Shown here: positions 39,461-58,757 of the stretch, piece by piece
Layout of the letters: every line of letters begins with the position of its first letter
Position numbering within the stretch: the first letter of the stretch is position 1
IMG/VR virus record: IMGVR_UViG_3300042396_000723
Location: 1-64,000 of that record
Reading direction: 5' to 3' (one strand)
From: a virus
Length of the DNA: 64,000 nucleotides
Translations under genes and position numbers: made by a program
The notes under the pieces: model-generated
Databases searched by the model: none
Seen by the model: the letters and a program-made list of their open reading frames with translations, nothing else
What the model was told of the DNA's origin: nothing

Positions 39461-39970
39461 TTATTCTCCGAAAAAACTTCTCACAGCTAACTGGGATTTT
39501 TTTGACTTTCCCACCGCTTCGTTAAGTTGCTGTTCTAAAGCCTCAATTGAGATTTCTTGATCAAAGTCTAAGAGGTTTCCTAACTCATCCCCGGACGCTT
39601 GATCAATTGCATTCTTGTACTCAGGAATCCCAACTAATAAAGCCTTGGCGGATTCAATTTCATCGTCTGCAATTTCATTTAAGAAAGCCAATTGTTTTGC
39701 TTTTTTAAATAGTTTAGCATCTTCCCGCCCGGAGTTTTGACCCGCAACAACAACGGCTTTAGTGTTAACAATCGCGTTATCCTTAGCTTTCTTTTGGGTC
39801 TTAACAACTGCATCATTGAGTTGATCTGTTGTACTCCCTTTGGTGATAGCTGATTTAGTCTGCTGTTTCGGCTGTTCCGCCTGGGTTTGGGGTTTCCGTG
39901 AGTTCTGATACAACTCGGTAAGTTCCGGTTGAGTGTTGTTGTCGGTAGCTTGTGATTCTTGATAGGACAT
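39461..39970 (-). CDS. hypothetical protein
   Basis: 169-aa ORF. Confidence 0.45.
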   Translation of the reverse strand: MSYQESQATDNNTQPELTELYQNSRKPQTQAEQPKQQTKSAITKGSTTDQLNDAVVKTQKKAKDNAIVNTKAVVVAGQNSGREDAKLFKKAKQLAFLNEIADDEIESAKALLVGIPEYKNAIDQASGDELGNLLDFDQEISIEALEQQLNEAVGKSKKSQLAVRSFFGE

Positions 39971-40328
39971 CGACTTTAAACTCCTTAAATAGTTGGGTTG
40001 TGTTTAGCATTAACATCTTCTGGAAAACTTCTATCTCGATAGATAAACCGTTGTTTAAACAGTGGTGATAGAGGCTTTGGAACTGATAGTAGGTATGGTG
40101 TGGGTATTTGGAACTAACAAAAATATGCAATAGGTACAAGATGTTTAATTCCGCCCAATCAACAGGTTTTCTTGTTATCCCCAAAACCCCTTTTCTGTCT
40201 GCGATTGTCTGGTGGGAAACCTTGAAAATCAACTGAATCTCTTTTGAGGAAAATGGTTCTAAAGCGTTTTCGTCTCTAAGATCTATTGTTTTCCTAATTC
40301 CCCCTTGCCTCGATCTAAAATCGCCCAT
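39855..40328 (-). CDS. hypothetical protein (start or extent uncertain)
   Basis: 157-aa ORF overlapping the downstream gene by about 116 nt in another frame. Confidence 0.3.
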   Translation of the reverse strand: MGDFRSRQGGIRKTIDLRDENALEPFSSKEIQLIFKVSHQTIADRKGVLGITRKPVDWAELNILYLLHIFVSSKYPHHTYYQFQSLYHHCLNNGLSIEIEVFQKMLMLNTTQLFKEFKVDVLSRITSYRQQHSTGTYRVVSELTETPNPGGTAETAD

Positions 40329-47630: not shown

Positions 47631-47909
47631 ATGAAGATTTCAATTTCAGAAGAATTGGATGACATTGGAATGTCCGCCGAAGCATTCCGAGTCTATTTTG
47701 CGATCGTTTGCCATATTGCAAATCACGAGACGTTTCCAACGGTTGATCAAATCACGTCAAAATGTTTTTCCAGACGACGCGCGTCTGGAAAAACGCAGAC
47801 AAGGCTTGCGTTGCGCGAGCTAATTAAGCTCGGTTTAATTAGCGGTGATATCGAAACGGAAAACTATACCTTAGTTCATCCCAGTAAGTGGGAAGTGGGG
47901 GCTGTATGA
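47631..47909 (+). CDS. winged-helix DNA-binding protein (possible replication-module organizer N-domain)
   Basis: 92 aa; helix-rich with a basic wing, first gene of the operon containing dnaB. Confidence 0.4.
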   Translation: MKISISEELDDIGMSAEAFRVYFAIVCHIANHETFPTVDQITSKCFSRRRASGKTQTRLALRELIKLGLISGDIETENYTLVHPSKWEVGAV

Positions 47910-49081
47910 AACCATCTATTCTAGCCGCCTTTGCAGAAGCCGTCCCCTATATCCCCGGACTCAGACAGCAAACAGGGAGCGTAGTAGCCACGATTCTTAT
48001 GATGCAACTTGAGTATCGTTTCGCAAAGTATCCAGACGGGTTTTATAAGTTTTTAGAACCCCCTCAAAACGGACATCAGGACTACAGGCTTGGGGATAGT
48101 TGGGTTGAGGAACTCGCTTTTTCTAAAGAAGAATTTAGGACTGGGTTTGACAAGATTGGAGTCCGTTACAACTCCAAAACCCAGTATGACGAAGCAAAAT
48201 CTAGCGGATCGGAATTTGGTTGTAATTACTACTGTTCTTACGTTGACCGGAGGTCGGGGTTAACTTTCTACTTTCGGAATCACAGCAAGGTAGATGAGCT
48301 AATTTCCGATATCGAACCCAGGCAAAAATCAGTGGGTTTTCGCCCACGGAAAACTAGACCCCAAATGGTAGATCCCAATCTACAGGAAATCGGGAATCCC
48401 AATTTACTGAATATGGTAAATCCCAATTTACCATCATCGGGAATCCCAATTTACCAGAGTGGTGAATCCCAATTTCCTATTCCTTATATAGATATTTCAG
48501 AAAAGACTTCAGAAAAGACTCCAGAAAATACCCCCCTTACCCCCCAAGGGGAATCGGAGGAGGGGGGGATTCAGAACGAAGCCGTTTTGATTTCAAACGA
48601 AGACCAGGGGAAAGAGCTTACCGAGGACTCTGCTACACAGCAAAGTCAAAAAGAGAATCACCGACCTGAACAAAATCTTAATCCGGTGATCAGACATTCC
48701 GCCGCCGTCGAGTCCGATCCTCGATTTCTACCAACGGACGCAACAGCAGACAATATGAAAACTTGGAACGCAATTGTGGCGACCGGAGCCATGAGAGGTG
48801 AGCGATCGCCCGACCCTGAGTTTTTGGAATATTACAGGGGGCTATTAAGCAAATGCACTCATTACAGGGGCAAAGACTGTAATTCAAACCATGCCAAATC
48901 TTCCCTTGCTCAGAAATGGAAATCCGAGCCACTAAAAATCCTTGCCGATGCCGAGTCGTGGTTGAAATCAAAAGCCAAGTTTAGCGGTGGCAAATCAACC
49001 CAGACCCGCAATATCAGCGAACTTTCTAGGGATGAACGCCTCGCCATCCTGAGAGCCAAACGCGAACAAAAAGGAGCCTAA
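47888..49081 (+). CDS. hypothetical protein (replication module)
   Basis: 397-aa ORF; repeated NPNL-like tetrapeptides. Confidence 0.5.
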   Translation: MGSGGCMKPSILAAFAEAVPYIPGLRQQTGSVVATILMMQLEYRFAKYPDGFYKFLEPPQNGHQDYRLGDSWVEELAFSKEEFRTGFDKIGVRYNSKTQYDEAKSSGSEFGCNYYCSYVDRRSGLTFYFRNHSKVDELISDIEPRQKSVGFRPRKTRPQMVDPNLQEIGNPNLLNMVNPNLPSSGIPIYQSGESQFPIPYIDISEKTSEKTPENTPLTPQGESEEGGIQNEAVLISNEDQGKELTEDSATQQSQKENHRPEQNLNPVIRHSAAVESDPRFLPTDATADNMKTWNAIVATGAMRGERSPDPEFLEYYRGLLSKCTHYRGKDCNSNHAKSSLAQKWKSEPLKILADAESWLKSKAKFSGGKSTQTRNISELSRDERLAILRAKREQKGA

Positions 49082-49083
49082 CC

Positions 49084-49671
49084 ATGACCGAGCTTAACGA
49101 TGAAATCTTTGATCAGGGAATTGAAAACCTGAAAGAAAATTTTTCCGACGCGATTTTCACCGAACTCAAATATGAAATTTGGTTCGACAAACTCTCTCAG
49201 GAGTTATCAGCTGAAGAATTTGAGACTGCAATCCGTGAGGCAATTTTCAACCTTAGCAAGTGTCCCACGGGAAAAGAGCTTGTAAGCCTCGTTAAAGAAT
49301 CCGAACGTGAGTTAGTAAGTAACTGTTGGTCAAGATGCCTAGAATCGCTTGCTAAACGCCTCCCGTTGAATAATTTAGACGATGCGAGTCAATATGCAAT
49401 CGTTCAACTCGGAGGGATGTCTCACCTTGGGTCGATTGAAAGTACCCAACTCAACTACCTGAGCAACGATTTCAAGACTCATTGGCAAGCCTACCGAAAA
49501 GCCCCGCGAGAATTTGAGCGTCCCACGCAGGTCATCCCCCGTGAGCAAATCGAGTTCAAGCCCAATGGACTCAAGCCACAGATTTCAGAGGAACAGAAGT
49601 TAAAAAATCAGGAATTTCTAAATAACCTGATCGCCACAAAAATGAATAAAAACTTAAATGGAGCGAAATAA
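49084..49671 (+). CDS. hypothetical protein (replication module, possible helicase loader)
   Basis: 195-aa ORF immediately 5' of dnaB; stop overlaps the dnaB start. Confidence 0.45.
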   Translation: MTELNDEIFDQGIENLKENFSDAIFTELKYEIWFDKLSQELSAEEFETAIREAIFNLSKCPTGKELVSLVKESERELVSNCWSRCLESLAKRLPLNNLDDASQYAIVQLGGMSHLGSIESTQLNYLSNDFKTHWQAYRKAPREFERPTQVIPREQIEFKPNGLKPQISEEQKLKNQEFLNNLIATKMNKNLNGAK

Positions 49672-50987
49672 TGGAAACAATAATCATGCAAAACGTTGAG
49701 GCAGAACAAGCCGTTTTGGGAGCGATTCTCTTAGACCCCGAAGCTATGGGGCGAGTTGCGGAAACGCTAACTGCTAAATCTTTTTCCCTGCGATCGCATC
49801 AAACAATCTACAAAGCAGCTTTAGCATTACATTCCGAGGGAATAACCACGGATTTAATGACCGTCACTACCTGGTTATCCGATCAGAAATTACTTGAAAA
49901 AGCCGGGGGACAATTAGGATTAACCCAATTATTAGACCGCACAGTTTCAGCAGTTAACATTGATCAATACGGGCTGTTAATTGCCGATAAGCAAACTCGA
50001 AGAAACCTAATTGAATCTGCCCATAAAATTATTGAATTGGCAGAAGATACCAGTCAACCTTTAGAGACAATTCTCCAAAAGTCAGAGGAACAAATTGCTA
50101 ATATTTCCCAATCAAAATCACAACAGGATTTAGTTTCGATTGGTGAAACTTTAATTGATACCTTTCAAGAAATTGAAGACCGGAGCGAAAGCAAGATTCC
50201 CCCCGGTGTCCCCTCTGGATTTTATGACCTCGATGCTATGACTGGAGGATTCCAACACACCGACTTAATTATTGTGGCAGGAAGACCTGCAATGGGCAAA
50301 TCGAGTTTGGCTTTAAATTTTGGATATAACATTGCCAAAAAAGGGCTACCCGTCGCGGTCTTCAGTTTAGAAATGTCTAAAGGTCAATTAGTCCAAAGAC
50401 TATTATCGAGCGAAACCAAAATTGAAAGTACCCGCATTCGTTCAGGAAACATTCAGCAAGAGGAATGGGAACCTTTGACAACCGCAATTAGTTCCTTAGC
50501 AGAATTACCGATTTATATTGACGACACCTCGAATATTACCATCACCGAAATGCGTTCTGAAGCTCGAAGATTGCAAGCCGATAACGATGGAAAGTTAGGC
50601 TTAATTCTAATAGATTATCTGCAATTAATGGACGGAGGAAGTGATAATCGGGTGCAAGAATTGTCAAGAATTACACGGGGATTAAAGGGAATGGCAAAAG
50701 ATTTAAACGTTCCTGTAGTTGTCCTGTCTCAGTTGAGTCGTAGCGTCGAACAGCGCACCAATAAACGCCCAATGCTTTCAGACTTGAGAGAATCGGGCTC
50801 AATTGAACAAGACGCGGACTTAGTAATGATGATCTATCGAGATGATTATTATAATCCCAACACTTCGGACGCGGGAATAGCTGAATTAATTTTAGCTAAA
50901 CATCGCAACGGCCCCACCGGAACAGTAAAGCTATTGTTCGATTCTCAATTTACCCAATTTAAAAATTTAGTACGGGGGATGAACTAA
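49671..50987 (+). CDS. dnaB: replicative DNA helicase DnaB
   Basis: N-terminal AEQAVLGAILLDPEA, Walker A AGRPAMGKSSLALN, Walker B LGLILIDYLQLM, RecA-like SQLSRSVEQR and arginine finger region. Confidence 0.9.
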   Translation: METIIMQNVEAEQAVLGAILLDPEAMGRVAETLTAKSFSLRSHQTIYKAALALHSEGITTDLMTVTTWLSDQKLLEKAGGQLGLTQLLDRTVSAVNIDQYGLLIADKQTRRNLIESAHKIIELAEDTSQPLETILQKSEEQIANISQSKSQQDLVSIGETLIDTFQEIEDRSESKIPPGVPSGFYDLDAMTGGFQHTDLIIVAGRPAMGKSSLALNFGYNIAKKGLPVAVFSLEMSKGQLVQRLLSSETKIESTRIRSGNIQQEEWEPLTTAISSLAELPIYIDDTSNITITEMRSEARRLQADNDGKLGLILIDYLQLMDGGSDNRVQELSRITRGLKGMAKDLNVPVVVLSQLSRSVEQRTNKRPMLSDLRESGSIEQDADLVMMIYRDDYYNPNTSDAGIAELILAKHRNGPTGTVKLLFDSQFTQFKNLVRGMN

Positions 50988-51416
50988 ATGGACATACTTG
51001 GTTGGGAAGACTTAGGAAGTATTATCAATTGGTTTTACGAACAGCAGAGACAAGGCAAAACTTCCTTTAAAGTTCAAGAAATGCGCGATAAGTTTAATTT
51101 GAATATTCCAAATTCAAACACCCGAATAAAACGGTTTCTTAAGTTTGGAATCATTAAACCACTAACTTATGGCAGATACGAAATCGAACCACTGTCAGAA
51201 GAAAGAATCCAGGAGATTAAAGACAAAATCATCCCCCCTAATCCCATTTTTAAAACCTATTATTTCAGGGGAAGACAACATACCGTCGAATGGATTTACC
51301 AAAACCAAAACCCCCCGATGACCCTCCAATATTTTGCTCAAAGACTTCAACGGGGTTGGTCACTAAAGAAAGCATTAGAAACACCGACCCGAAAATACAA
51401 AAAAGAGGTTAATTAA
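50988..51416 (+). CDS. hypothetical protein
   Basis: 142-aa ORF. Confidence 0.5.
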   Translation: MDILGWEDLGSIINWFYEQQRQGKTSFKVQEMRDKFNLNIPNSNTRIKRFLKFGIIKPLTYGRYEIEPLSEERIQEIKDKIIPPNPIFKTYYFRGRQHTVEWIYQNQNPPMTLQYFAQRLQRGWSLKKALETPTRKYKKEVN

Positions 51417-51420
51417 CGCC

Positions 51421-51984
51421 ATGACCGCAGCAACCAAGAAGATAATTGAAAGAATCTTAAAAATTGGTGAGTGGGTAGAGATTGACCCACATAAACACCG
51501 CCCATCTTATCTAATAAGAGGTACAGCATGGCGAGTTGAAAGTTTCAATGTATTAAAACAAACCTGTCAAGTAACTAACGAAAAAACCAGATCGGAAACC
51601 CTAGACTTTGAGGAGGTTTCCGACTCATCCCCATTCAAAAAAACAGATATTGTGCAATTAAAAAAGGATAGCCGTTACATCGGACGGGTGATTATGTGCC
51701 GGGGGAATAAAATCAAAATTCAGTGGGCGAAAGGATTGGCAGAATCCTTAGACTCGGACAAGATAAAACTATTTATTCAGATGGTCAAAGGGGAACAAAT
51801 CCCCCTCGGAAATTACGCTTTCCAGAAAGGCGATCATGTCAAAACTACAGACAAGAATTTTGGCAATGTAATCCTCACTGTAAAAGAATGCTTACCCTCT
51901 GGAATGGTGGTGTTGAGTTCATCAAACGATCCTAATTTATTGCTCCCCGGCTGTGGCTTAACAATTGTTGAGGAGGGTTTCTAA
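51421..51984 (+). CDS. hypothetical protein
   Basis: 187-aa ORF. Confidence 0.5.
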   Translation: MTAATKKIIERILKIGEWVEIDPHKHRPSYLIRGTAWRVESFNVLKQTCQVTNEKTRSETLDFEEVSDSSPFKKTDIVQLKKDSRYIGRVIMCRGNKIKIQWAKGLAESLDSDKIKLFIQMVKGEQIPLGNYAFQKGDHVKTTDKNFGNVILTVKECLPSGMVVLSSSNDPNLLLPGCGLTIVEEGF

Positions 51985-53015
51985 TGCCAACATTCGCAAC
52001 ATTATTCATGGGCGGAGGCGGTGCAGATTTGGGGTTAGAGGCCGCAGGGTTTAAGTCTTTATGGGGAATTGAAAGAGATCCTAAAATTGCAGAAGTAGCA
52101 CGATTAAATTTCCCAAATACCAAAGTATTTAATTCTTGCGCAGGAGACATAAACCCCCGCAGTCTTCCCTATGTTGACCTGCTTTGGATGAGTCCCCCGT
52201 GCCAACAGTATTCAAACGCTAGACGGGGTAATTTAGGCGATCACAAAGACAAGGACGCGGGGCTGTACTGTAGCAGTTATATCGCAGCGATTGATCCTCG
52301 ATGGGTAGTTTTAGAAAACGTCCCTGGCTACTCAAAATCACCTGTATTCGAGAAAATCCTACAATCCTTAATTCGCCACGGATATCGCTATCATTGGTTA
52401 ATACTTGACGCGGCGGATCACGGGGTTCCCCAAAACCGGAAACGGTTGATTATGTGGGCAGTTAAAAATGATCAACCTCTCCCCTATTTCCCCGAATCAA
52501 AACCCAAAAAGGGATGGTATCAAGCCATTGCTGACTTAATCCCAGAAATGCAGGACTGTGAGCTTGCAGACTGGCAGATTAAGCGACTAAATGAATTGGG
52601 TTATTTACCAGAAAAAGCCTGGATTGATATTGGGAAACAACTCATTAGACAGGCTACAGTTCGGGAGTCAAACGATCCAAGTTTTACTATTGTGAGTGGT
52701 CATGTTAACTCGCATTCTCCTATCCTGTTAATCCCCCGAGCGGGAGCTTGCATCAAGAATATTCTCCCGACTCCACAGAACAAACCCTGCCCAACAATTC
52801 GAGCTATGAAGGATGTTTCAACCCATTGGGCGGACATCGTGCAGGGAAGCCAAATTAAACGAATTAGTCAGAAAGCGACGGCACGGCTCCAGACTTTCCC
52901 CGACTCCTATCAATTCCCAGAATCCAAAACTTTAAGCCAACAAATAATAGGAAACGCCGTGCCTCCGTTATTGGCTAAAGAATTAGGTCTGGCAATCTTA
53001 AAATCAATTAACTAA
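51984..53015 (+). CDS. DNA (cytosine-5)-methyltransferase
   Basis: Motif I LFMGGGG, motif IV SPPCQQYS (PCQ), motif VI VLENVPG. Confidence 0.85.
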   Translation: MPTFATLFMGGGGADLGLEAAGFKSLWGIERDPKIAEVARLNFPNTKVFNSCAGDINPRSLPYVDLLWMSPPCQQYSNARRGNLGDHKDKDAGLYCSSYIAAIDPRWVVLENVPGYSKSPVFEKILQSLIRHGYRYHWLILDAADHGVPQNRKRLIMWAVKNDQPLPYFPESKPKKGWYQAIADLIPEMQDCELADWQIKRLNELGYLPEKAWIDIGKQLIRQATVRESNDPSFTIVSGHVNSHSPILLIPRAGACIKNILPTPQNKPCPTIRAMKDVSTHWADIVQGSQIKRISQKATARLQTFPDSYQFPESKTLSQQIIGNAVPPLLAKELGLAILKSIN

Positions 53016-53017
53016 CC

Positions 53018-53461
53018 ATGAAAACATCAACTAAAGCCAAAACCAAACCCGCTAAAAAAGGATTTCAACCCGCCCCTAAAATTCATGACAATGACTTACA
53101 TATATTTTCTTGTGAGTGCCTTTGGTATGACTCAGAAACCGACGAGGAACTATTGACCGAATTGTGGACAGTCAAACTCGATAAACGACGGTTTCGGACT
53201 GATGTCAGGCAAGCCATTATTACGGGGTTGATCTATTGCTTTCTTGAAACACCGGAAGCAACGGAACGGCATATTAACAGGGTGTTTTTTTGGAATAATA
53301 AATCCCGTGCCTATGAGCCATTAGGGGCGGTGTCTGACGCGCCGATGGACGGATCTAGTCCGGTTGATTTTGAAGCCGATCCGGTGGTGGCTTATGAGCG
53401 ATTAAAAGCCCTTTGTGTCGAGATCGAAGTTATCAAGGTTGACGATTGCTTTTGCTCTTGA
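53018..53461 (+). CDS. hypothetical protein
   Basis: 147-aa ORF. Confidence 0.5.
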   Translation: MKTSTKAKTKPAKKGFQPAPKIHDNDLHIFSCECLWYDSETDEELLTELWTVKLDKRRFRTDVRQAIITGLIYCFLETPEATERHINRVFFWNNKSRAYEPLGAVSDAPMDGSSPVDFEADPVVAYERLKALCVEIEVIKVDDCFCS

Positions 53462-53469
53462 CCTTTTAA

Positions 53470-53515
53470 AAATACACAAATAAACTTGTTTTTTTTGCGT
53501 TATTTGTGTATAATG
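53470..53515 (+). promoter_or_regulatory. promoter-like element with overlapping inverted repeat (extended -10 TGTGTATAAT)
   Basis: ACACAAATAA...TTATTTGTGT inverted repeat and a TATAAT box about 16 nt after TTGTTT. Confidence 0.4.
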
Positions 53516-53519
53516 AAAA

Positions 53520-53780
53520 CAGTCAAGAATCAAGGTTTACCAATGTAGTTTGTTGGTAAATAGTTAACCAGTCTAAGCTCTTTACTGAGCTACGTTATTG
53601 GGAAGTGTTTAAGTTCATACCTTGGGATGCGTTGCCAGTTCCAAGCTCTATAACTAAGTGATTAAACAGATGTACAGCAATTAAGTCAGCAATACTGCTG
53701 ATACCCTCTTAATAAGCAGCGATTTCCCACAAATCCCCATAATCTGTTATAACTGGTGAGTAGTTATATGAGGTTGTTTT
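53520..53780 (+). ncRNA. candidate structured noncoding RNA or long 5' leader
   Basis: About 260 nt without an ORF downstream of the promoter-like element; hairpins TTTACCAA/TTGGTAAA and CAGCA/TGCTG. Confidence 0.25.
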
Positions 53781-53781
53781 T

Positions 53782-53982
53782 ATGGTAAGACCCCACGAAC
53801 ACAGGCAAGAAATCAAAGCCAGACTCAAACCAGAAGATAGGGAGAAGTTGAAAGCCCTCGTCGTTGGCATGGGTTATCGTTATTGGAGGCAGGAGTCACC
53901 GGAACCCGCATGGACTGAGTTTTTGGAGGCGATCGCAACGGGCGATATAATTCTTTACAAAAAAGTCGGGGGAGGGGGTTGA
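53782..53982 (+). CDS. hypothetical small protein
   Basis: 66-aa ORF. Confidence 0.35.
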   Translation: MVRPHEHRQEIKARLKPEDREKLKALVVGMGYRYWRQESPEPAWTEFLEAIATGDIILYKKVGGGG

Positions 53983-54043
53983 CCTTTTGGGATAAGTGGG
54001 GTACAGTTATAAATGTAGAAGGTTGAAATAAAGGAACAAGACG

Positions 54044-54274
54044 ATGACCACTCAAACCGAGCCAACTAAAATTTACTGCGACCGGAAATTTTCACTTTAC
54101 GACGTAACACCCTGGACAGCCGCAAGGCTGACGAATTTCTTTAACTTGGTTGACGATGGTGAAGACGTGAAACGTGCCGTCAATGGGTTGAAAACCTGGA
54201 AAGGTAGTCAGTCCTACCGCTTGACAATGAGTGACAAAGCTTCGATTGATTACGTTATTGAATGCTACGGTTAA
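54044..54274 (+). CDS. hypothetical protein
   Basis: 76-aa ORF. Confidence 0.45.
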   Translation: MTTQTEPTKIYCDRKFSLYDVTPWTAARLTNFFNLVDDGEDVKRAVNGLKTWKGSQSYRLTMSDKASIDYVIECYG

Positions 54275-54342
54275 AGATTAATTAACCGAGTAAGGTGGCT
54301 GCCCTACTCGGTTCGAAGTCAATCATTTAAGAGGAGTATACC

Positions 54343-54852
54343 ATGTCAAGCAAAAAACAGGTCAAGCAATCTTTAGAACTGACACTAAGTTTAGCCGAAT
54401 CACTAGGGCCATTAACACGGTCAGAAGCTAAAGAGTTTTTTGGATTATTGGGAGAACTCAATAAAGTTTTCAGTAAAGTAGTTGACCCCGATGCTCACGG
54501 CCTAAAACCCGAACCCAGTCCCGAAGTAGTTAAACACCCCATTGATGCCCTACTCAAAAAAGGAAAGGTCGAACTACCAGAGGGACGCTACAAACAACTG
54601 ATTCAGATTCATGACGAGCTTTTAGTCCTCAAGATTAAATTCTTGAGTGCGAAGCAAAATCAGAATGTCACCTGGTTCCCCCTTGAGTGGAACGGGGATA
54701 AGTCAGCCGCGTTGTACTTGTCATCGTCGGAATGGTCTATAGCTCCCATCAAGTACCGAGATGACAACGATTTGACGGGCGAGTGGGAAGGATTTGATCT
54801 TACTGAGTTCATGAGTATGAACTGCCCAGAGTTTGATCAAGACGAATATTGA
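54343..54852 (+). CDS. hypothetical protein
   Basis: 169-aa ORF. Confidence 0.5.
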   Translation: MSSKKQVKQSLELTLSLAESLGPLTRSEAKEFFGLLGELNKVFSKVVDPDAHGLKPEPSPEVVKHPIDALLKKGKVELPEGRYKQLIQIHDELLVLKIKFLSAKQNQNVTWFPLEWNGDKSAALYLSSSEWSIAPIKYRDDNDLTGEWEGFDLTEFMSMNCPEFDQDEY

Positions 54853-54904
54853 TTTCATGGGAGGTCTTACCCTCCCTCCAAGAAGTAAAGCAGGAGAACA
54901 AATT

Positions 54905-55063
54905 ATGCTATATCGCATCACCCGAATCAAAACCGCACCCGACAGAAAAGACCGTCAAGGGTATTATTTAGAAGCCTTGAATGAGTTAGAGGCTTTGACA
55001 AGATTTCATAACCAATTCCCTGAATTTGTAGGGGAAGAATTAGAGTTAGAGGAATGGAATTAA
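54905..55063 (+). CDS. hypothetical small protein
   Basis: In-frame ATG with AGGAG 8 nt upstream; the track's longer form would overlap the previous gene. Confidence 0.4.
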   Translation: MLYRITRIKTAPDRKDRQGYYLEALNELEALTRFHNQFPEFVGEELELEEWN

Positions 55064-55088
55064 AAGACCTCTAATTCAACTTAAAACT

Positions 55089-55118
55089 AACCAGGGGTTT
55101 ATATTCCCTGGTTTTTTG
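55089..55118. terminator. bidirectional intrinsic terminator
   Basis: AACCAGGG/CCCTGGTT stem followed by TTTTT, between converging genes. Confidence 0.7.
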
Positions 55119-55122
55119 CTGT

Positions 55123-55719
55123 TTATCTAATCACAGGGACAGGAATAATCCCCATCAGAATGCCAGATATTTCCTGAAACATTCGCGTAGTTGTTTGCGT
55201 TGCGTCAATTATAATCCAGTTATTTTGCCTAGCCAATTCCAGATATCCGAAGCGAACCCGATCTAAAAAAAGCAAGTCTCGTTCAACCTTGTCCAGAGGT
55301 TTGTCGAGATCGCGGCGCACCGCCACCTCAACAGGACAATCGAACAAAATCACCATATCGGGATCAATTCCCCCCGTCGCCTCGTGATTTAGCTTCCTTA
55401 AATTATCTAAATTAAGCCCGTGCCCATATCCCTGATAGGCAAGTGTTGAATCCGTGTATCGATCACACAATACCAAATCAGAATCTTCTAACAAATATCT
55501 AATCGTGGGATTGTGTTTAATCCTATCCTTCAGGATTAATTTAAGCTGCTGCTCCGGCGTTAAACACCCATTCTTTAATTCAAAACGAACGTCATAATCG
55601 CAGGGTTCTCTTGTGATGTAGAACTTTAACTTTAACGCCGTGAAATGGTCGCAAAGTTTTCTAATTTGGGTTGTTTTCCCACTGCGGTCAATACCTTCAA
55701 AAGCAATCAATTTACTCAT
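55123..55719 (-). CDS. tmk: thymidylate kinase
   Basis: P-loop FEGIDRSGKTTQ, DRY-like LCDRYTDSTLAYQG and lid region; start at ATG overlapping the upstream stop. Confidence 0.8.
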   Translation of the reverse strand: MSKLIAFEGIDRSGKTTQIRKLCDHFTALKLKFYITREPCDYDVRFELKNGCLTPEQQLKLILKDRIKHNPTIRYLLEDSDLVLCDRYTDSTLAYQGYGHGLNLDNLRKLNHEATGGIDPDMVILFDCPVEVAVRRDLDKPLDKVERDLLFLDRVRFGYLELARQNNWIIIDATQTTTRMFQEISGILMGIIPVPVIR

Positions 55720-55880
55720 TTCATCCTCATCCAATTTTTAATCAAATCATCTTTAATCATACCTTGCCTTATTAATTCAATTATATATTCTCTAGCTTCC
55801 TCCAGTGTCAATATATCCACATTACGTTTAATTATCGCAAGTTTAAATTCTTGCTCCATTGTTAGCTGTGTTGGTTCCAT
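55716..55880 (-). CDS. hypothetical small protein (not in ORF track)
   Basis: 54-aa hand-translated ORF whose TGA overlaps the tmk ATG (ATGA). Confidence 0.35.
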   Translation of the reverse strand: MEPTQLTMEQEFKLAIIKRNVDILTLEEAREYIIELIRQGMIKDDLIKNWMRMK

Positions 55881-55912
55881 TTCCGTTGTTATAAGAATAT
55901 CAACACATAGAT

Positions 55913-55976
55913 TATATCAAAAAATATTTTGATTTTTATACCTCTTTAATACAGAATCAAAATATTTTTTTGATTT
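55913..55976. promoter_or_regulatory. pair of palindromic operator-like sites (ATCAAAA-N-TTTTGAT)
   Basis: ATCAAAAAATATTTTGAT and ATCAAAATATTTTTTTGAT about 45 bp apart in the divergent region between the tmk operon and the RHH gene. Confidence 0.4.
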
Positions 55977-56011
55977 ACCTGTTGCCAATTGCTCCTGATG
56001 ATGGATTTAAT

Positions 56012-56040
56012 TTGCCAATGCGTATAGTATAGAAATATAT
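56012..56040 (+). promoter_or_regulatory. sigma70-like promoter
   Basis: TTGCCA-17 nt-TATATA upstream of the 56063 start; shares ATGCGTATAKTATAGAA with the promoter at 56269. Confidence 0.4.
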
Positions 56041-56062
56041 AAATACAGCAGGAGATGGCACA

Positions 56063-56272
56063 ATGCGCGACTATATAAACAGAGTCCCCGACTATGGGGA
56101 AAAGAAAAAGCCTCACAATCTGAGTTTGACCGACACGGCGTGGCAACGGCTTGATAAATTAGCTGCGCTCTTGGGAGTGTCCAGGAGTGAGTTCGTCGAA
56201 CGCCTATCCCGTGGAGCGATTGCCCCACAAGACTTACAAGCCTTTTATAAAATTTTTTTAAAAAAAGGTTGA
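56063..56272 (+). CDS. ribbon-helix-helix (CopG-like) regulator
   Basis: LSLTDTAWQRLDKLAALLGVSRSEFVERL fits an RHH fold. Confidence 0.5.
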   Translation: MRDYINRVPDYGEKKKPHNLSLTDTAWQRLDKLAALLGVSRSEFVERLSRGAIAPQDLQAFYKIFLKKG

Positions 56273-56298
56273 CAATTTCTAAAGTATGCGTATATTAT
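56269..56298 (+). promoter_or_regulatory. sigma70-like promoter
   Basis: TTGACA-17 nt-ATATTA/TATATT upstream of the 56328 start. Confidence 0.45.
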
Positions 56299-56327
56299 AG
56301 AATTTGTAAACGCACAGAGGTAACGCC

Positions 56328-57131
56328 ATGACAACCGCAACCACAGCAAAAACCAAAACCGCAGCAAAAACTAAAACCCCTGAGTGGAAATGGAATAATA
56401 ATCTGGGGTGTGATGCCCTAAAACTCCCTACAAAGGGATGTCACGTTGACAACAGAGGAAACGTCTGGAAAGACGGCGACTCCATTGGTAACGTCACCCC
56501 GTTGCCAAATTCAGTTAAGGTGACACCCCTAGAATGGGTTGTCACCCACGAACAAAAACAGGAAGCCGTTTCCTGCGAAAAGCTACACGGGAGCTACAAA
56601 AAAAACGCGACTCCTGCCCGTCGTAAAGAATCCCCCGATGGGATGCGGGGAGGCAATTCTCAGTGGGGAGAAGTCTCTGGCCCTAAAGCCCATTTTGTGG
56701 CTGATGAGTACGAGGTGATTGTCACCTACACGGCAACTAAAGCCGTCAATCAATTCAGGGAAATTATTGAGGGAAAACCCAAGTTTCCTTCCCCCACTAC
56801 CATTGCCTATGAAACGGGCTATGGGAAAGAAACGGAATATACCGTGACCGAGTTGGCCGTCTTAGACTTGCCTACCGAAAAAGTGGAGAAGGTCTACACA
56901 GACCAACGAAAACACCTCTATGGAGAGGCAATCAAGGTTGTCAAAGAATACCTTGACAATTTAGATAAACCCGTTGAAGGGCTGTTAAAGGTCGGTGACA
57001 GCGTGATTCACCCTGTATATGGACAGGGAACTGTCACAAAGGCTTTCGGGACTAAAAACCCCACCTACCAGTCCGTTTGCGCGGATTTCCCCTGCGGGAA
57101 CAAGATGGTAGGAAAATGTGACCTGATATGA
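56328..57131 (+). CDS. hypothetical protein
   Basis: 267-aa ORF with Thr/Ala/Lys-rich N-terminus. Confidence 0.55.
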   Translation: MTTATTAKTKTAAKTKTPEWKWNNNLGCDALKLPTKGCHVDNRGNVWKDGDSIGNVTPLPNSVKVTPLEWVVTHEQKQEAVSCEKLHGSYKKNATPARRKESPDGMRGGNSQWGEVSGPKAHFVADEYEVIVTYTATKAVNQFREIIEGKPKFPSPTTIAYETGYGKETEYTVTELAVLDLPTEKVEKVYTDQRKHLYGEAIKVVKEYLDNLDKPVEGLLKVGDSVIHPVYGQGTVTKAFGTKNPTYQSVCADFPCGNKMVGKCDLI

Positions 57132-57187: not shown

Positions 57188-57685
57188 ATGACAACTTTCA
57201 CAAAACCAGAAAACCTTTTTGATTCAGTTGATTTTCAAGGATTTGTCGTCGGAGAAGACGACGCGGTAACAACAGTATTGTATCGGGGTCAAGTCCCCGA
57301 TTTTAAGCGGAATAAAAAACAGGTCGTAAAGTTTGACTTCGACCTTCACTGCCTAACGGCAAAACACTGGTTTCTAGCTATAGAGCTATCTACTTCTGAC
57401 CTTTTGTTTAAGGAGGTAGAAAGTTGTCCTGTTGAACTTCCCAATGAGTTCAAGGATTCAGTTGTCCTGCACCCTGTAAACGGGAAAGTGGGCGTTTGGG
57501 TTGCGCCGATGTCACCCACTGATGTTTCGGGTTGGCAAAAAGCTATGGAAACTACAGCGACAGAGGTAAAAGCCTCTGGTAGTGTGAAGTTTCGAGGGCT
57601 TCACAACCTGTTCAACAGGCTATCCCGCGTTACCCCCAAAACAGGGGTTGTTGGGGGTGCTAAATTCCCGACATGGAGAGACTAA
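57188..57685 (+). CDS. hypothetical protein
   Basis: 165-aa ORF. Confidence 0.55.
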   Translation: MTTFTKPENLFDSVDFQGFVVGEDDAVTTVLYRGQVPDFKRNKKQVVKFDFDLHCLTAKHWFLAIELSTSDLLFKEVESCPVELPNEFKDSVVLHPVNGKVGVWVAPMSPTDVSGWQKAMETTATEVKASGSVKFRGLHNLFNRLSRVTPKTGVVGGAKFPTWRD

Positions 57686-57710
57686 AAGTAGCGATCTCAG
57701 GTTAGCTCCT

Positions 57711-57737
57711 AGCACGGTTCGATTCCGTGCGGTCGCA
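57711..57737 (+). other. tRNA 3'-end-like element (T-arm plus acceptor-like), not a complete tRNA
   Basis: CACGG-TTCGATT-CCGTG followed by CGGTCGCA; no D-arm or anticodon arm can be built upstream. Confidence 0.3.
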
Positions 57738-57774
57738 TTCCCGAAAGGGATTATTAACTACATAGGCTAAAGCA

Positions 57775-58056
57775 ATGAAGAAACATCAAATCAATGAGCA
57801 ACTTAGTAAGTTATTGAAACTTACTAACTGCTCTAACCTAGAGGTAACGGTTGACAACAACACCAGGGATTGTATGACCGTCTGGAAGCTATGGGGTAAA
57901 GGTGGGCAAATTGCCCAAGCCGAAGCACGGTTTGGATCGGAATATTCTGATCAACCCGATGGTTTTGCCTTCTATTTAGAAGGCTACAACTGGACAGATT
58001 ACTGTCCTACAGTTCAAGATTGTGCCAGCCAACACAAGGAGCGCGCTCTTGTCTAA
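57775..58056 (+). CDS. hypothetical protein
   Basis: 93-aa ORF. Confidence 0.45.
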   Translation: MKKHQINEQLSKLLKLTNCSNLEVTVDNNTRDCMTVWKLWGKGGQIAQAEARFGSEYSDQPDGFAFYLEGYNWTDYCPTVQDCASQHKERALV

Positions 58057-58057
58057 T

Positions 58058-58222
58058 ATGACCCATTATTTCGGCTACGAAGTCGAGATTAAAGATAAAT
58101 CAGGGAAGTACGCCTGGTTTATCTACCAAGACGGGGTAATCATCTTTTCAAGTGGCTACGATTACCCCACAGAAGCCACAGCCTATGACTGCGCTTGCAG
58201 TCGCATTGACACATTATTCTAA
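58058..58222 (+). CDS. hypothetical small protein
   Basis: 54 aa from the in-frame ATG (track's TTG start at 58022 overlaps the previous gene). Confidence 0.35.
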   Translation: MTHYFGYEVEIKDKSGKYAWFIYQDGVIIFSSGYDYPTEATAYDCACSRIDTLF

Positions 58223-58233
58223 GGAAAAATCAA

Positions 58234-58614
58234 ATGGAAATCATTAACGCTACACCCCATCAAATCGTTATCTGTAGCAACCAAGGGGTTGTCCAAGATG
58301 CAAAGACTAAGCAATTCACAGCTTCGGCTGTTGAGATCCTCCACACCCTGCCACCATCGGGAATCATCCCCCGCGTGGCGATGGGGAATACCGAATCCGA
58401 ACCCATTTTAGGTATTCCAGTCCAAAGCGTTCAATATGGCGAGATTGAGGGACTCCCCCCTGCGTCTCCCGATGTTTATTATGTAGTGTCGGGACTGGTA
58501 GCAGCAGCCGCCGTTAAAGTGAACAGGGCTGATTGCCTGGCTCCGGGTGCGCTAGTCCGCAATTCTGCCAACCCATCAGAGGTGTTAGGCTGTCTTTTTT
58601 TGCAAAAGCCCTGA
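58234..58614 (+). CDS. hypothetical protein (possible frameshift partner of downstream zinc-ribbon ORF)
   Basis: 126-aa ORF ending just after a T7 run. Confidence 0.45.
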   Translation: MEIINATPHQIVICSNQGVVQDAKTKQFTASAVEILHTLPPSGIIPRVAMGNTESEPILGIPVQSVQYGEIEGLPPASPDVYYVVSGLVAAAAVKVNRADCLAPGALVRNSANPSEVLGCLFLQKP

Positions 58615-58721
58615 TTGGCGACGGTTGCCCCCGGTGTGGTAGTCATAGGCTGGTTAGATATGGTTACACCGAACACGGTCGCCGCCGAATGAAATGCAAG
58701 GATTGTAATAAATTATTTTAA
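58533..58721 (+). CDS. zinc-ribbon (InsA-like) ORF in -1 frame, probably expressed only as a fusion
   Basis: CPRCGSHRLVRYGYTEHGRRRMKCKDCNKLF; only a TTG start, no SD; lies in the -1 frame relative to 58234-58614. Confidence 0.35.
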   Translation: MPGSGCASPQFCQPIRGVRLSFFAKALIGDGCPRCGSHRLVRYGYTEHGRRRMKCKDCNKLF

Positions 58722-58725
58722 AATC

Positions 58726-58757
58726 AACCCTCTAAATATTTAGAGGGTTCTTTTTTT
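58726..58757. terminator. bidirectional intrinsic terminator
   Basis: Perfect palindrome AACCCTCTAAATATTTAGAGGGTT followed by T7. Confidence 0.75.

Follow-up and report, generated by a model that had tools for sequence, protein, structure and literature searches.

When a short phage gene ends a few codons after a run of seven T (T7), and an overlapping reading frame goes on to encode a zinc ribbon, does the run serve to join the two? The question is raised by a locus in a 64,000-nucleotide stretch of viral DNA (positions 1 to 64,000 of IMG/VR record IMGVR_UViG_3300042396_000723, a single strand; hereafter the window), in which an open reading frame (ORF) of 126 codons with the fold of a Crn4-type ring nuclease is followed, in the -1 frame, by 39 codons for a linker and a basic four-cysteine (C4) zinc ribbon. 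An earlier note on this DNA had proposed that the zinc ribbon, which has no proper start of its own, is joined to the upstream ORF by a -1 slip on the T-run, and the comparative evidence supports this proposal: run and extension occur together among relatives, the codons of the run are conserved, the -1 frame is under purifying selection, the linkers stay in frame with the slip site and no start codon is shared. On these sequence comparisons the T-run is very likely a recoding site, and one gene probably makes two proteins.

The locus and its slip site

The anatomy that the earlier note had described is found in the sequence (Table 1): the upstream ORF (58234-58614) ends in ...LGCLFLQKP and then TGA, 11 nt past the run, and the run forms an X_XXY_YYZ heptamer, T_TTT_TTG, in the frame of that ORF. 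From 58602 the -1 frame encodes AKALIGDGCPRCGSHRLVRYGYTEHGRRRMKCKDCNKLF and stops at 58719-58721, with the layout AKALIGDG-CPRC-GSHRLVRYGYTEHGRRRMK-CKDC-NKLF; the predicted fusion of ring nuclease and tail is 162 amino acids (aa) long, where about 160 had been estimated. The intrinsic terminator is placed after the zinc-ribbon stop, not after the zero-frame stop, and its hairpin is kept in relatives.

Taken alone, the heptamer is no more than chance would provide, because X_XXY_YYZ heptamers (Y = A or T) occur in frame 88 times in the long ORFs of the window, four times as T_TTT_TTG; it is the comparative pattern that, as judged from the related sequences, lies far beyond chance. As a class, T7 and A7 runs are depleted across the window to about half of expectation (39 against 85 +/- 13 in dinucleotide-preserving shuffles). 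A second frameshift candidate, on the minus strand at 39461-40328, consists of two ORFs with a 116-nt overlap; the downstream ORF, in the +1 frame, has an AAGGAG and an ATG of its own, and the case was set aside as an ordinary overlap rather than a frameshift of the tail-chaperone type.

Co-occurrence of the T7 run and the extension

Related DNA came from IMG/VR (74 loci) and from JGI, ENA and Logan contigs, with metagenomes searched by means of the zinc-ribbon peptide; the T-run was used in none of the queries that gathered the relatives. The main clade, defined by at least 77% Crn4 identity to the window, comprises 24 distinct coding sequences (CDS), all of which carry CTTTTTTTG and then the zinc ribbon in the -1 frame. 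The loci L116, L118 and L243, with Crn4 proteins 70-77% and zinc ribbons 50-60% identical to those of the window, have the same arrangement, and in L119 the slip site reads CTTTTTTTA, i.e. U_UUU_UUA (T_TTT_TTA). The T7 run is invariant in the 24 main-clade CDS and in five divergent lineages, one of them that with T_TTT_TTA. At about 50 sister-clade loci (including the Microcystis-phage type) and in L241 and L244, Leu-Phe-Leu is instead written TTG TTC TTA, CTG TTT TTA, TTA TTC TTG and the like, and none of these T7-less loci has a -1-frame extension. Every relative with such an extension also has the run.

Neighbour-joining puts the T7 lineages into a single clade whose sister is the T7-less L244, and on the strength of this monophyly the arrangement of run and extension arose once and was then kept. 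No in-frame fusion of Crn4 and zinc ribbon was found in the close family or among 5.8 billion clustered proteins, all close homologues align only to the first 77% of the hypothetical fusion, and no variant with T6 or T8 was found in any independent assembly. Because an in-frame fusion is absent and the length of the run is constant across assemblies, these comparisons rule out a sequencing artefact or a recent pseudogene. A scan of IMG/VR with the slip-site DNA pattern was too unspecific, and it returned the Crn4 gene only in members of the clade that were already known.

Three relatives deserve mention in their own right. L239, at 66% Crn4 identity to the window, keeps CTTTTTTTG, after which the -1 frame is open for an unrelated extension of 62 codons, FFAEVVRLKLGRASGRPSFYPPGTETTVIKIPKHLKEQLQQIGIALAWGRTEEAIKIISDRTPD (L239:1501-2050, ENA ERZ18242340 NODE_3307), without a start codon and without a zinc ribbon. 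No homologue of this tail was found in Pfam, PHROGs, NCBIfam, PDB sequences or the protein database; a likeness to ribbon-helix-helix proteins was a by-eye impression only, for which the searches gave nothing, and no claim is made of it. This tail swap, in one lineage, hints that the appended module may be exchangeable between lineages. In L026 (L026:3147-3493, IMGVR_UViG_3300047543_000114) a partial second copy, consisting of the 3' half of crn4, the T7 run and a zinc ribbon with a different type of linker, lies directly behind a complete crn4-slip-zinc-ribbon module, which suggests recombination between module variants. A main-clade protein (P0021, L117:1258-1638) reads NATNVQI for NATPHQI and has lost the catalytic His; the T7 run and the zinc ribbon are retained.

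Selection on the slip site and on the -1 frame

The argument from sequence depends on retention of the arrangement across saturated synonymous divergence. Among nine divergent T7 lineages, codons are identical at only 32-48% of positions where the amino acid is identical, and synonymous sites are therefore near saturation. The alignment of these lineages has 58 degenerate codon columns in which the amino acid is invariant, and the codon itself is invariant in three of them: I73, L123 (CTT) and F124 (TTT), the last two being the run. Outside the run this holds for 1 of 56 comparable columns. At L125 eight lineages have TTG and the ninth has TTA, and the six other invariant Leu columns use three to five codons each. 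The zero-frame heptamer is thus conserved beyond coding need, as in a frameshift cassette.

Dual coding from the slip site onward predicts constrained codons between slip site and stop, and such a pattern is found: the CAA and AAG that follow the heptamer are the same throughout the main clade, where Gln and Lys codons elsewhere vary. The only main-clade changes from heptamer to stop are CCC to CCT and TGA to TAA (CCT TAA in L028), which are silent in either frame. The linker that leads from the slip site to the first Cys has at least five lengths, all multiples of three and in frame with the slip site; indels in the main clade are of 0, +3 and +9 nt, and the divergent lineages also differ, in frame.

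The zinc-ribbon ORF could in principle be an untranslated relic, such as the 5' end of a decayed transposase gene of the IS1/IS1595 type, carried along in closely related phages; the ribbon is of the transposase N-terminal type, and most main-clade sequences are highly alike. Yet the variable sites of the main clade fall 7/7/24 by codon position of the -1 frame, i.e. 24 of 38 at third positions, and the pairwise ratio of nonsynonymous to synonymous substitution rates (dN/dS) of the -1 ORF is 0.06-0.35, down to 0.06 in pairs with dS above 1, a pattern that indicates purifying selection. At 50-60% identity the zinc ribbons of the divergent lineages keep the C4 core, the four Cys being invariant together with P, S, G, T, R, R and F; moreover, no transposase remnant lies downstream, where the terminator stands directly behind the ORF. 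We regard a relic as exceedingly improbable.

Absence of a shared start for the zinc ribbon

The overlapping -1 ORF also fits a frameshift cassette in being without an initiation site of its own. In the window, as the earlier note had said, the zinc-ribbon frame has only a TTG as start (58533), and this TTG is a by-product of the invariant zero-frame Asp-Cys codons GAT TGC. L116, L118, L119 and L243, like 7 of the 20 distinct variants of the main clade, have a -1-frame stop 5-9 codons before the run, and past it there is no ATG, GTG or TTG; the exceptions are L027, with a lone TTG two codons before the run, and L116, with a GTG overlapping the zero-frame UGA. The codon that overlaps the zero-frame stop is itself variable (CTG, TTA, GTG, GTA or ATA). 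None of the independent starts considered, namely TTG 58533, CTG or ATT at the stop, and GTGA coupling, is conserved among the lineages. Because so many lineages have an upstream -1-frame stop with no start after it, the sequences exclude a stand-alone start as the mechanism common to them; since the stop-overlapping codon differs, termination-reinitiation would likewise lack a conserved start. The earlier note had named translation of the zinc ribbon from its own start as the finding that would speak against a fusion. Among the relatives no start is shared, and in many of them the TTG is cut off.

An assembly of Planktothrix agardhii (GCA_032116315.1; P0271 and P0272, at loci L086 and L087) has the -1 ORF annotated as a separate overlapping gene, and the NCBI names given to these ORFs of 63 and 65 aa are 'transposase' or 'transposase-like zinc-binding domain-containing protein'. 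This annotation, the open TTG-initiated ORF of the window and the GTGA overlap of start and stop in L116 would agree with a separate small protein, translated from TTG 58533 or by reinitiation at CTG/ATT 58611-58616, with the T-run incidental. We consider this very unlikely, since a separate protein would have no common start among the lineages and would leave unexplained the conservation of T7 at saturated synonymous sites, the dual-coding constraint on CAA AAG and the linker indels that keep the slip frame. The separate 'transposase' annotation is probably a misannotated frameshift extension.

Table 1. Coordinates of the features at the crn4-zinc-ribbon locus, in positions of the window
Feature	Position	Strand	Remarks
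Shine-Dalgarno-like AAGGA	58221..58225	+	8 nt 5' of the ring-nuclease ATG; read from sequence
Zero-frame CDS, 126 aa, Crn4b-like ring nuclease by prediction	58234..58614	+	ORF list, AlphaFold model, Foldseek, profile
-1-frame TTG, sole canonical start for a stand-alone zinc-ribbon ORF	58533..58535	+	Rejected as a conserved start
Internal Shine-Dalgarno-like AGAGGTG	58578..58584	+	GAGG 13 nt upstream of the heptamer; possible stimulator, as in dnaX
T7 run	58595..58601	+	Codons CTT TTT TTG = L121 F122 L123
Slippery heptamer T_TTT_TTG	58596-58602	+	X_XXY_YYZ in the zero frame
-1-frame extension, 39 codons + TAA	58602..58721	+	Linker AKALIGDG + basic C4 zinc ribbon
Zero-frame stop TGA	58612..58614	+	11 nt past the T7 run; sits inside -1-frame codons CTG ATT
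Zinc-ribbon core CPRC...CKDC	58626..58706	+	Transposase N-terminal type; NCBIfam match
Intrinsic terminator	58726..58757	+	10-bp stem, 4-nt loop, T-run; starts 5 nt past the zinc-ribbon stop

Ribosomal frameshift or transcriptional slippage

The T-run is, as far as the sequences go, the only route into the -1 frame common to all lineages, and ribosomal -1 frameshifting is the most likely mechanism. Four features point to the ribosome: the conserved unit is exactly an in-frame heptamer, L119 carries the classical U_UUU_UUA, and some lineages have a Shine-Dalgarno-like element upstream or a hairpin downstream. Most of the main clade has a Shine-Dalgarno-like GAGG some 13 nt before the heptamer, and L116 a GGAGG. 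Downstream of the heptamer, L243 has an 11-bp hairpin at a distance of 6 nt (z -2.0), L119 a hairpin at 9 nt (z -4.1) and L118 a hairpin formed by two HIP1-like GCGATCGC repeats (z -4.6); all three lie within 5-60 nt downstream of the heptamer, and in L118 and L119 the paired GCGATCGC repeats are part of the zinc-ribbon codons. The lineages with hairpins (L118, L119 and L243) lack a Shine-Dalgarno-like GAGG, and the main clade is the reverse, with the upstream element and no hairpin. Hairpin and Shine-Dalgarno-like element may be alternative stimulators.

A number of observations weigh against a programmed ribosomal shift. The earlier note had called for a search for a downstream pseudoknot or stem-loop, and in the window this search came back empty: shuffled sequence folds as well as the downstream region (z +0.84), the clade of the window has no significant downstream structure (z -1.7 to +1.2), RNAalifold finds no compensatory pair or covariation downstream in the clade, and Rfam has no match at the slip site. 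The Shine-Dalgarno-like upstream element is absent from L025, L027 and subclade 2. In Escherichia coli, Z_ZZN motifs shift less well when their codon is heterogeneous, as UUG is, and U_UUG by itself reaches only 1.8-3.6 times background (PMC4066793). The origin of the arrangement being single, the counts of co-occurrence are not independent events. Finally, the T7 run is equally compatible with slippage of RNA polymerase. A 'hungry codon' effect is unlikely because UUG is a common Leu codon in the phage of the window. On these grounds the efficiency of frameshifting is probably modest.

The caveat of possible transcriptional slippage, raised in the earlier note, therefore still stands. RNA polymerase would add one U on the template A7 tract, and the resulting U8 mRNA would encode the same 162-aa fusion, with LFFAK as the predicted junction peptide. 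Slippage would account for a conserved homopolymer of seven, the longest run that the invariant Leu-Phe-Leu permits, and for the lack of a conserved ribosomal stimulator in the window clade. Bacterial slippage sites, on the other hand, usually have at least nine A or T (Thermus dnaX, Shigella mxiE, insertion sequence (IS) elements), the conserved unit is exactly an in-frame X_XXY_YYZ heptamer, and several relatives have hairpins at the spacing of 6-9 nt that is typical of ribosomal frameshifting. On balance we hold slippage to be somewhat unlikely.

The upstream protein as a Crn4-type ring nuclease

Crn4 was first described in late 2025 as a nuclease that degrades the cyclic oligoadenylates (cOA) cA3, cA4 and cA6, with the catalytic residues T13, H15 and R112 in Crn4a numbering; its fold consists of pairs of beta strands and one short helix and has no further relatives in the PDB, and it forms a homodimer with a swapped beta-hairpin (Chi et al. 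2025, PMC12830947). Orthologues in phages and plasmids have been proposed as anti-CRISPRs, and a zinc ribbon, a C-terminal extension or a frameshift is not mentioned for Crn4, the extensions reported being N-terminal (PMC12830947).

The 126-aa protein of the window belongs to this family by fold, by catalytic residues and by sequence homology. Its AlphaFold (AF2) model, made from 25 homologues, has a predicted local distance difference test (pLDDT) score of 93.2, and the best Foldseek match in the PDB is Crn4b (9r7b) with E 4.6e-7, template-modelling (TM) scores of 0.67/0.73 and probability 1.0. All of the top seven PDB matches are Crn4 chains (E 4.6e-7 to 1.4e-4), and the next, unrelated match has an E above 4. 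At the level of sequence the signal is weak, the family profile matching Crn4b at E 1.1e-4 (25.5 bits) and Crn4a at E 0.28; the alignment pairs INATPH with NLTPH and LVRN with VRD of Crn4b. Thr7, His9 and R109 match the catalytic T/H/R of Crn4, and in the family alignment Thr7 and R109 are invariant and H9 nearly so. Fold and sequence thus mark the upstream ORF as a Crn4b-like ring nuclease, and the corresponding activity is predicted from them.

The family is large: at E <= 1e-3 an exhaustive search with the 126-aa profile returned 4,433 representatives, and its members are proteins of some 105-135 aa that stand alone. The whole family shares the C-terminus LFLQKP and close homologues end there, so that the zero-frame stop marks the natural finish of a complete protein. 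One distant member, P0204 (154 aa), has an in-frame Cys-rich C-terminal tail (CECG...CECCGYDC) and may have arisen by a separate fusion of a metal-binding module to a Crn4 domain. It is the only one with a Cys-rich tail among the C-terminally extended proteins fetched from the best 150 of the 4,433, and as a precedent for an in-frame fusion it was too weak to use.

The zinc-ribbon tail

The tail belongs to the family of N-terminal zinc-binding domains of IS256/IS1/IS1595 transposases, with NCBIfam matches above cutoff to NF048018 (41.7 bits, cutoff 27) and NF050000 IS1_IS1595_Zn (39.1 bits, cutoff 28). The Pfam models IS1595 (PF12760) and InsA (PF03811) score below cutoff in the window and above it in L116, L118 and L119. 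In its AF2 model (pLDDT 83.5) the tail is a two-hairpin zinc ribbon, and it is strongly basic; the nearest folds, at a weak E of about 0.2, are the DNA-binding ribbons of NrdR and Dof. Most plausibly the tail would bind nucleic acid, and by analogy its role may be autoregulation in the manner of an anti-CRISPR-associated (Aca) repressor, or tethering of the enzyme. A remnant of an insertion sequence was considered and rejected, with neither transposase nor repeats present.

Comparison with known systems

The short product resembles Crn4b (PDB 9R7B) in fold (TM about 0.7), in length (about 125 aa), in the N-x-T-P-H motif and in the V-R-D arginine; sequence similarity is weak (profile E 1e-4), and neither a C-terminal extension or zinc ribbon nor recoding has been described for Crn4. 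The earlier note heard in the locus an echo of InsA/InsAB' of IS1, and this likeness holds for the type of zinc ribbon (NF050000) and the kind of recoding, and fails for the gene, the order of domains and the transposase, which is missing. As in IS1, where the -1 shift occurs at A_AAA_AAC, the heptamer is homopolymeric and the zero-frame stop lies close by. In IS1, however, the zinc ribbon is the upstream zero-frame product to which the transposase is added, whereas here it is the zinc ribbon that would be added. The ribbon is followed by its stop, the terminator and a convergent gene of the Rha family, with no transposase domain; terminal repeats are absent as well, so the locus is not a mobile element.

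The -1 frameshifts of the lambda tail assembly chaperone gene (gpG/gpGT) and of E. coli dnaX (tau/gamma) are conserved and give two products with a common N-terminal domain at a fixed ratio, as is proposed here, and dnaX also has an upstream Shine-Dalgarno-like element (at 10 nt, against about 13 nt in the window). The phage gene differs in family, in its heptamer (U_UUU_UUG against G_GGA_AAG or A_AAA_AAG) and in having no stimulatory structure conserved across the clade. The slip site is nearly identical to U_UUU_UUA of HIV-1 gag-pol, and exactly so in L119. HIV-1 gives two junction peptides, with Leu if tRNA-Leu decoded the last zero-frame codon and otherwise Phe (PMC5009743), and two would be possible at the phage slip site as well; unlike the phage, HIV-1 uses eukaryotic ribosomes and a defined downstream stem-loop. 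We place the case with the programmed -1 frameshift (or slippage) cassettes, a class already known; what is unexpected is the gene, one for a recently recognised viral enzyme of the anti-CRISPR type.

Genomic and host context

The window is related to the Planktothrix phage PaV-LD, with 88% nucleotide identity over 47800-57108 (NC_016564 1798-14772), a segment that includes homologues of nblA, thymidylate kinase, integrase and PAPS reductase. PaV-LD has no crn4, and other small ORFs replace the region after the 267-aa ORF (57188-58721), so crn4 lies in a variable accessory region. Downstream of the locus, in the convergent direction, stands the Rha-family regulator gene. The crn4-slip-zinc-ribbon module is found in several different gene neighbourhoods and hence travels as a unit. 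In all P. agardhii isolates studied, a type III-B CRISPR system carries spacers that target PaV-LD (PMC9398003), which makes a viral ring nuclease plausible as a counter-defence.

Immediately upstream of crn4 is an ORF of 54 aa (window 58058-58222, ...YDCACSRIDTLF) for which Pfam and PHROGs give nothing. The divergent L118 has the end of a homologous ORF (...CACSRVDTLY) ahead of its crn4, and in L086 only the last 40 nt or so of the ORF, with TTGACAC, remain upstream of crn4. The region may be a partner gene or a promoter segment. A search for operators upstream of crn4 gave this shared TTGACAC-containing segment as its sole result.

A proposed two-isoform ring nuclease and its meaning

We propose that the 126-aa Crn4b-type ring nuclease of the phage, presumably a dimer, would degrade cyclic oligoadenylates and so blunt the signalling of host type III CRISPR or of cyclic-oligonucleotide-based antiphage signalling systems (CBASS). 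At codons 122-123 (U_UUU_UUG) a fraction of ribosomes would slip back by one nucleotide, bypass the UGA three codons on and add a 39-aa tail of linker and basic C4 zinc ribbon, giving a 162-aa isoform at a fixed ratio to the short form. Crn4 being obligately dimeric, its dimers would carry no tail, one or two, and a zinc ribbon on a dimeric enzyme would be a bivalent nucleic-acid binder. A fixed low ratio set by frameshifting would suit an Aca-like autoregulator of an anti-defence operon, or a tether.

One may go further and speculate that a fixed minority of Crn4 subunits carries an exchangeable nucleic-acid-binding tail and that such dimers double as a DNA-binding regulator, which we consider an unlikely but consequential idea. 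AcrIIA1 and Aca proteins and the CARF winged helix-turn-helix regulator Csa3 also join a domain for anti-defence or cOA binding to a small module that binds DNA; the comparison is one of analogy, as these are ordinary in-frame fusions or separate genes and DNA binding by the phage zinc ribbon is putative. If the idea were true, one gene could unite Acr and Aca functions, its product being an anti-CRISPR and at the same time the repressor of the operon, or the protein could be a viral sensor that couples the level of cOA (the sign that type III CRISPR has fired) to phage transcription, like the CARF-HTH regulators.

A literature search turned up no ring nuclease or anti-CRISPR gene for which recoding has been reported. 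The locus offers a natural U_UUU_UUG/A site for the study of frameshifting in cyanobacteria. If confirmed, it would add a conserved programmed frameshift outside the usual phage cases of tail chaperones, dnaX and insertion sequences, and it would point to an unstudied function for a small zinc ribbon of the transposase type. It would also give the cyanophages of bloom-forming Planktothrix an anti-defence enzyme in two isoforms.

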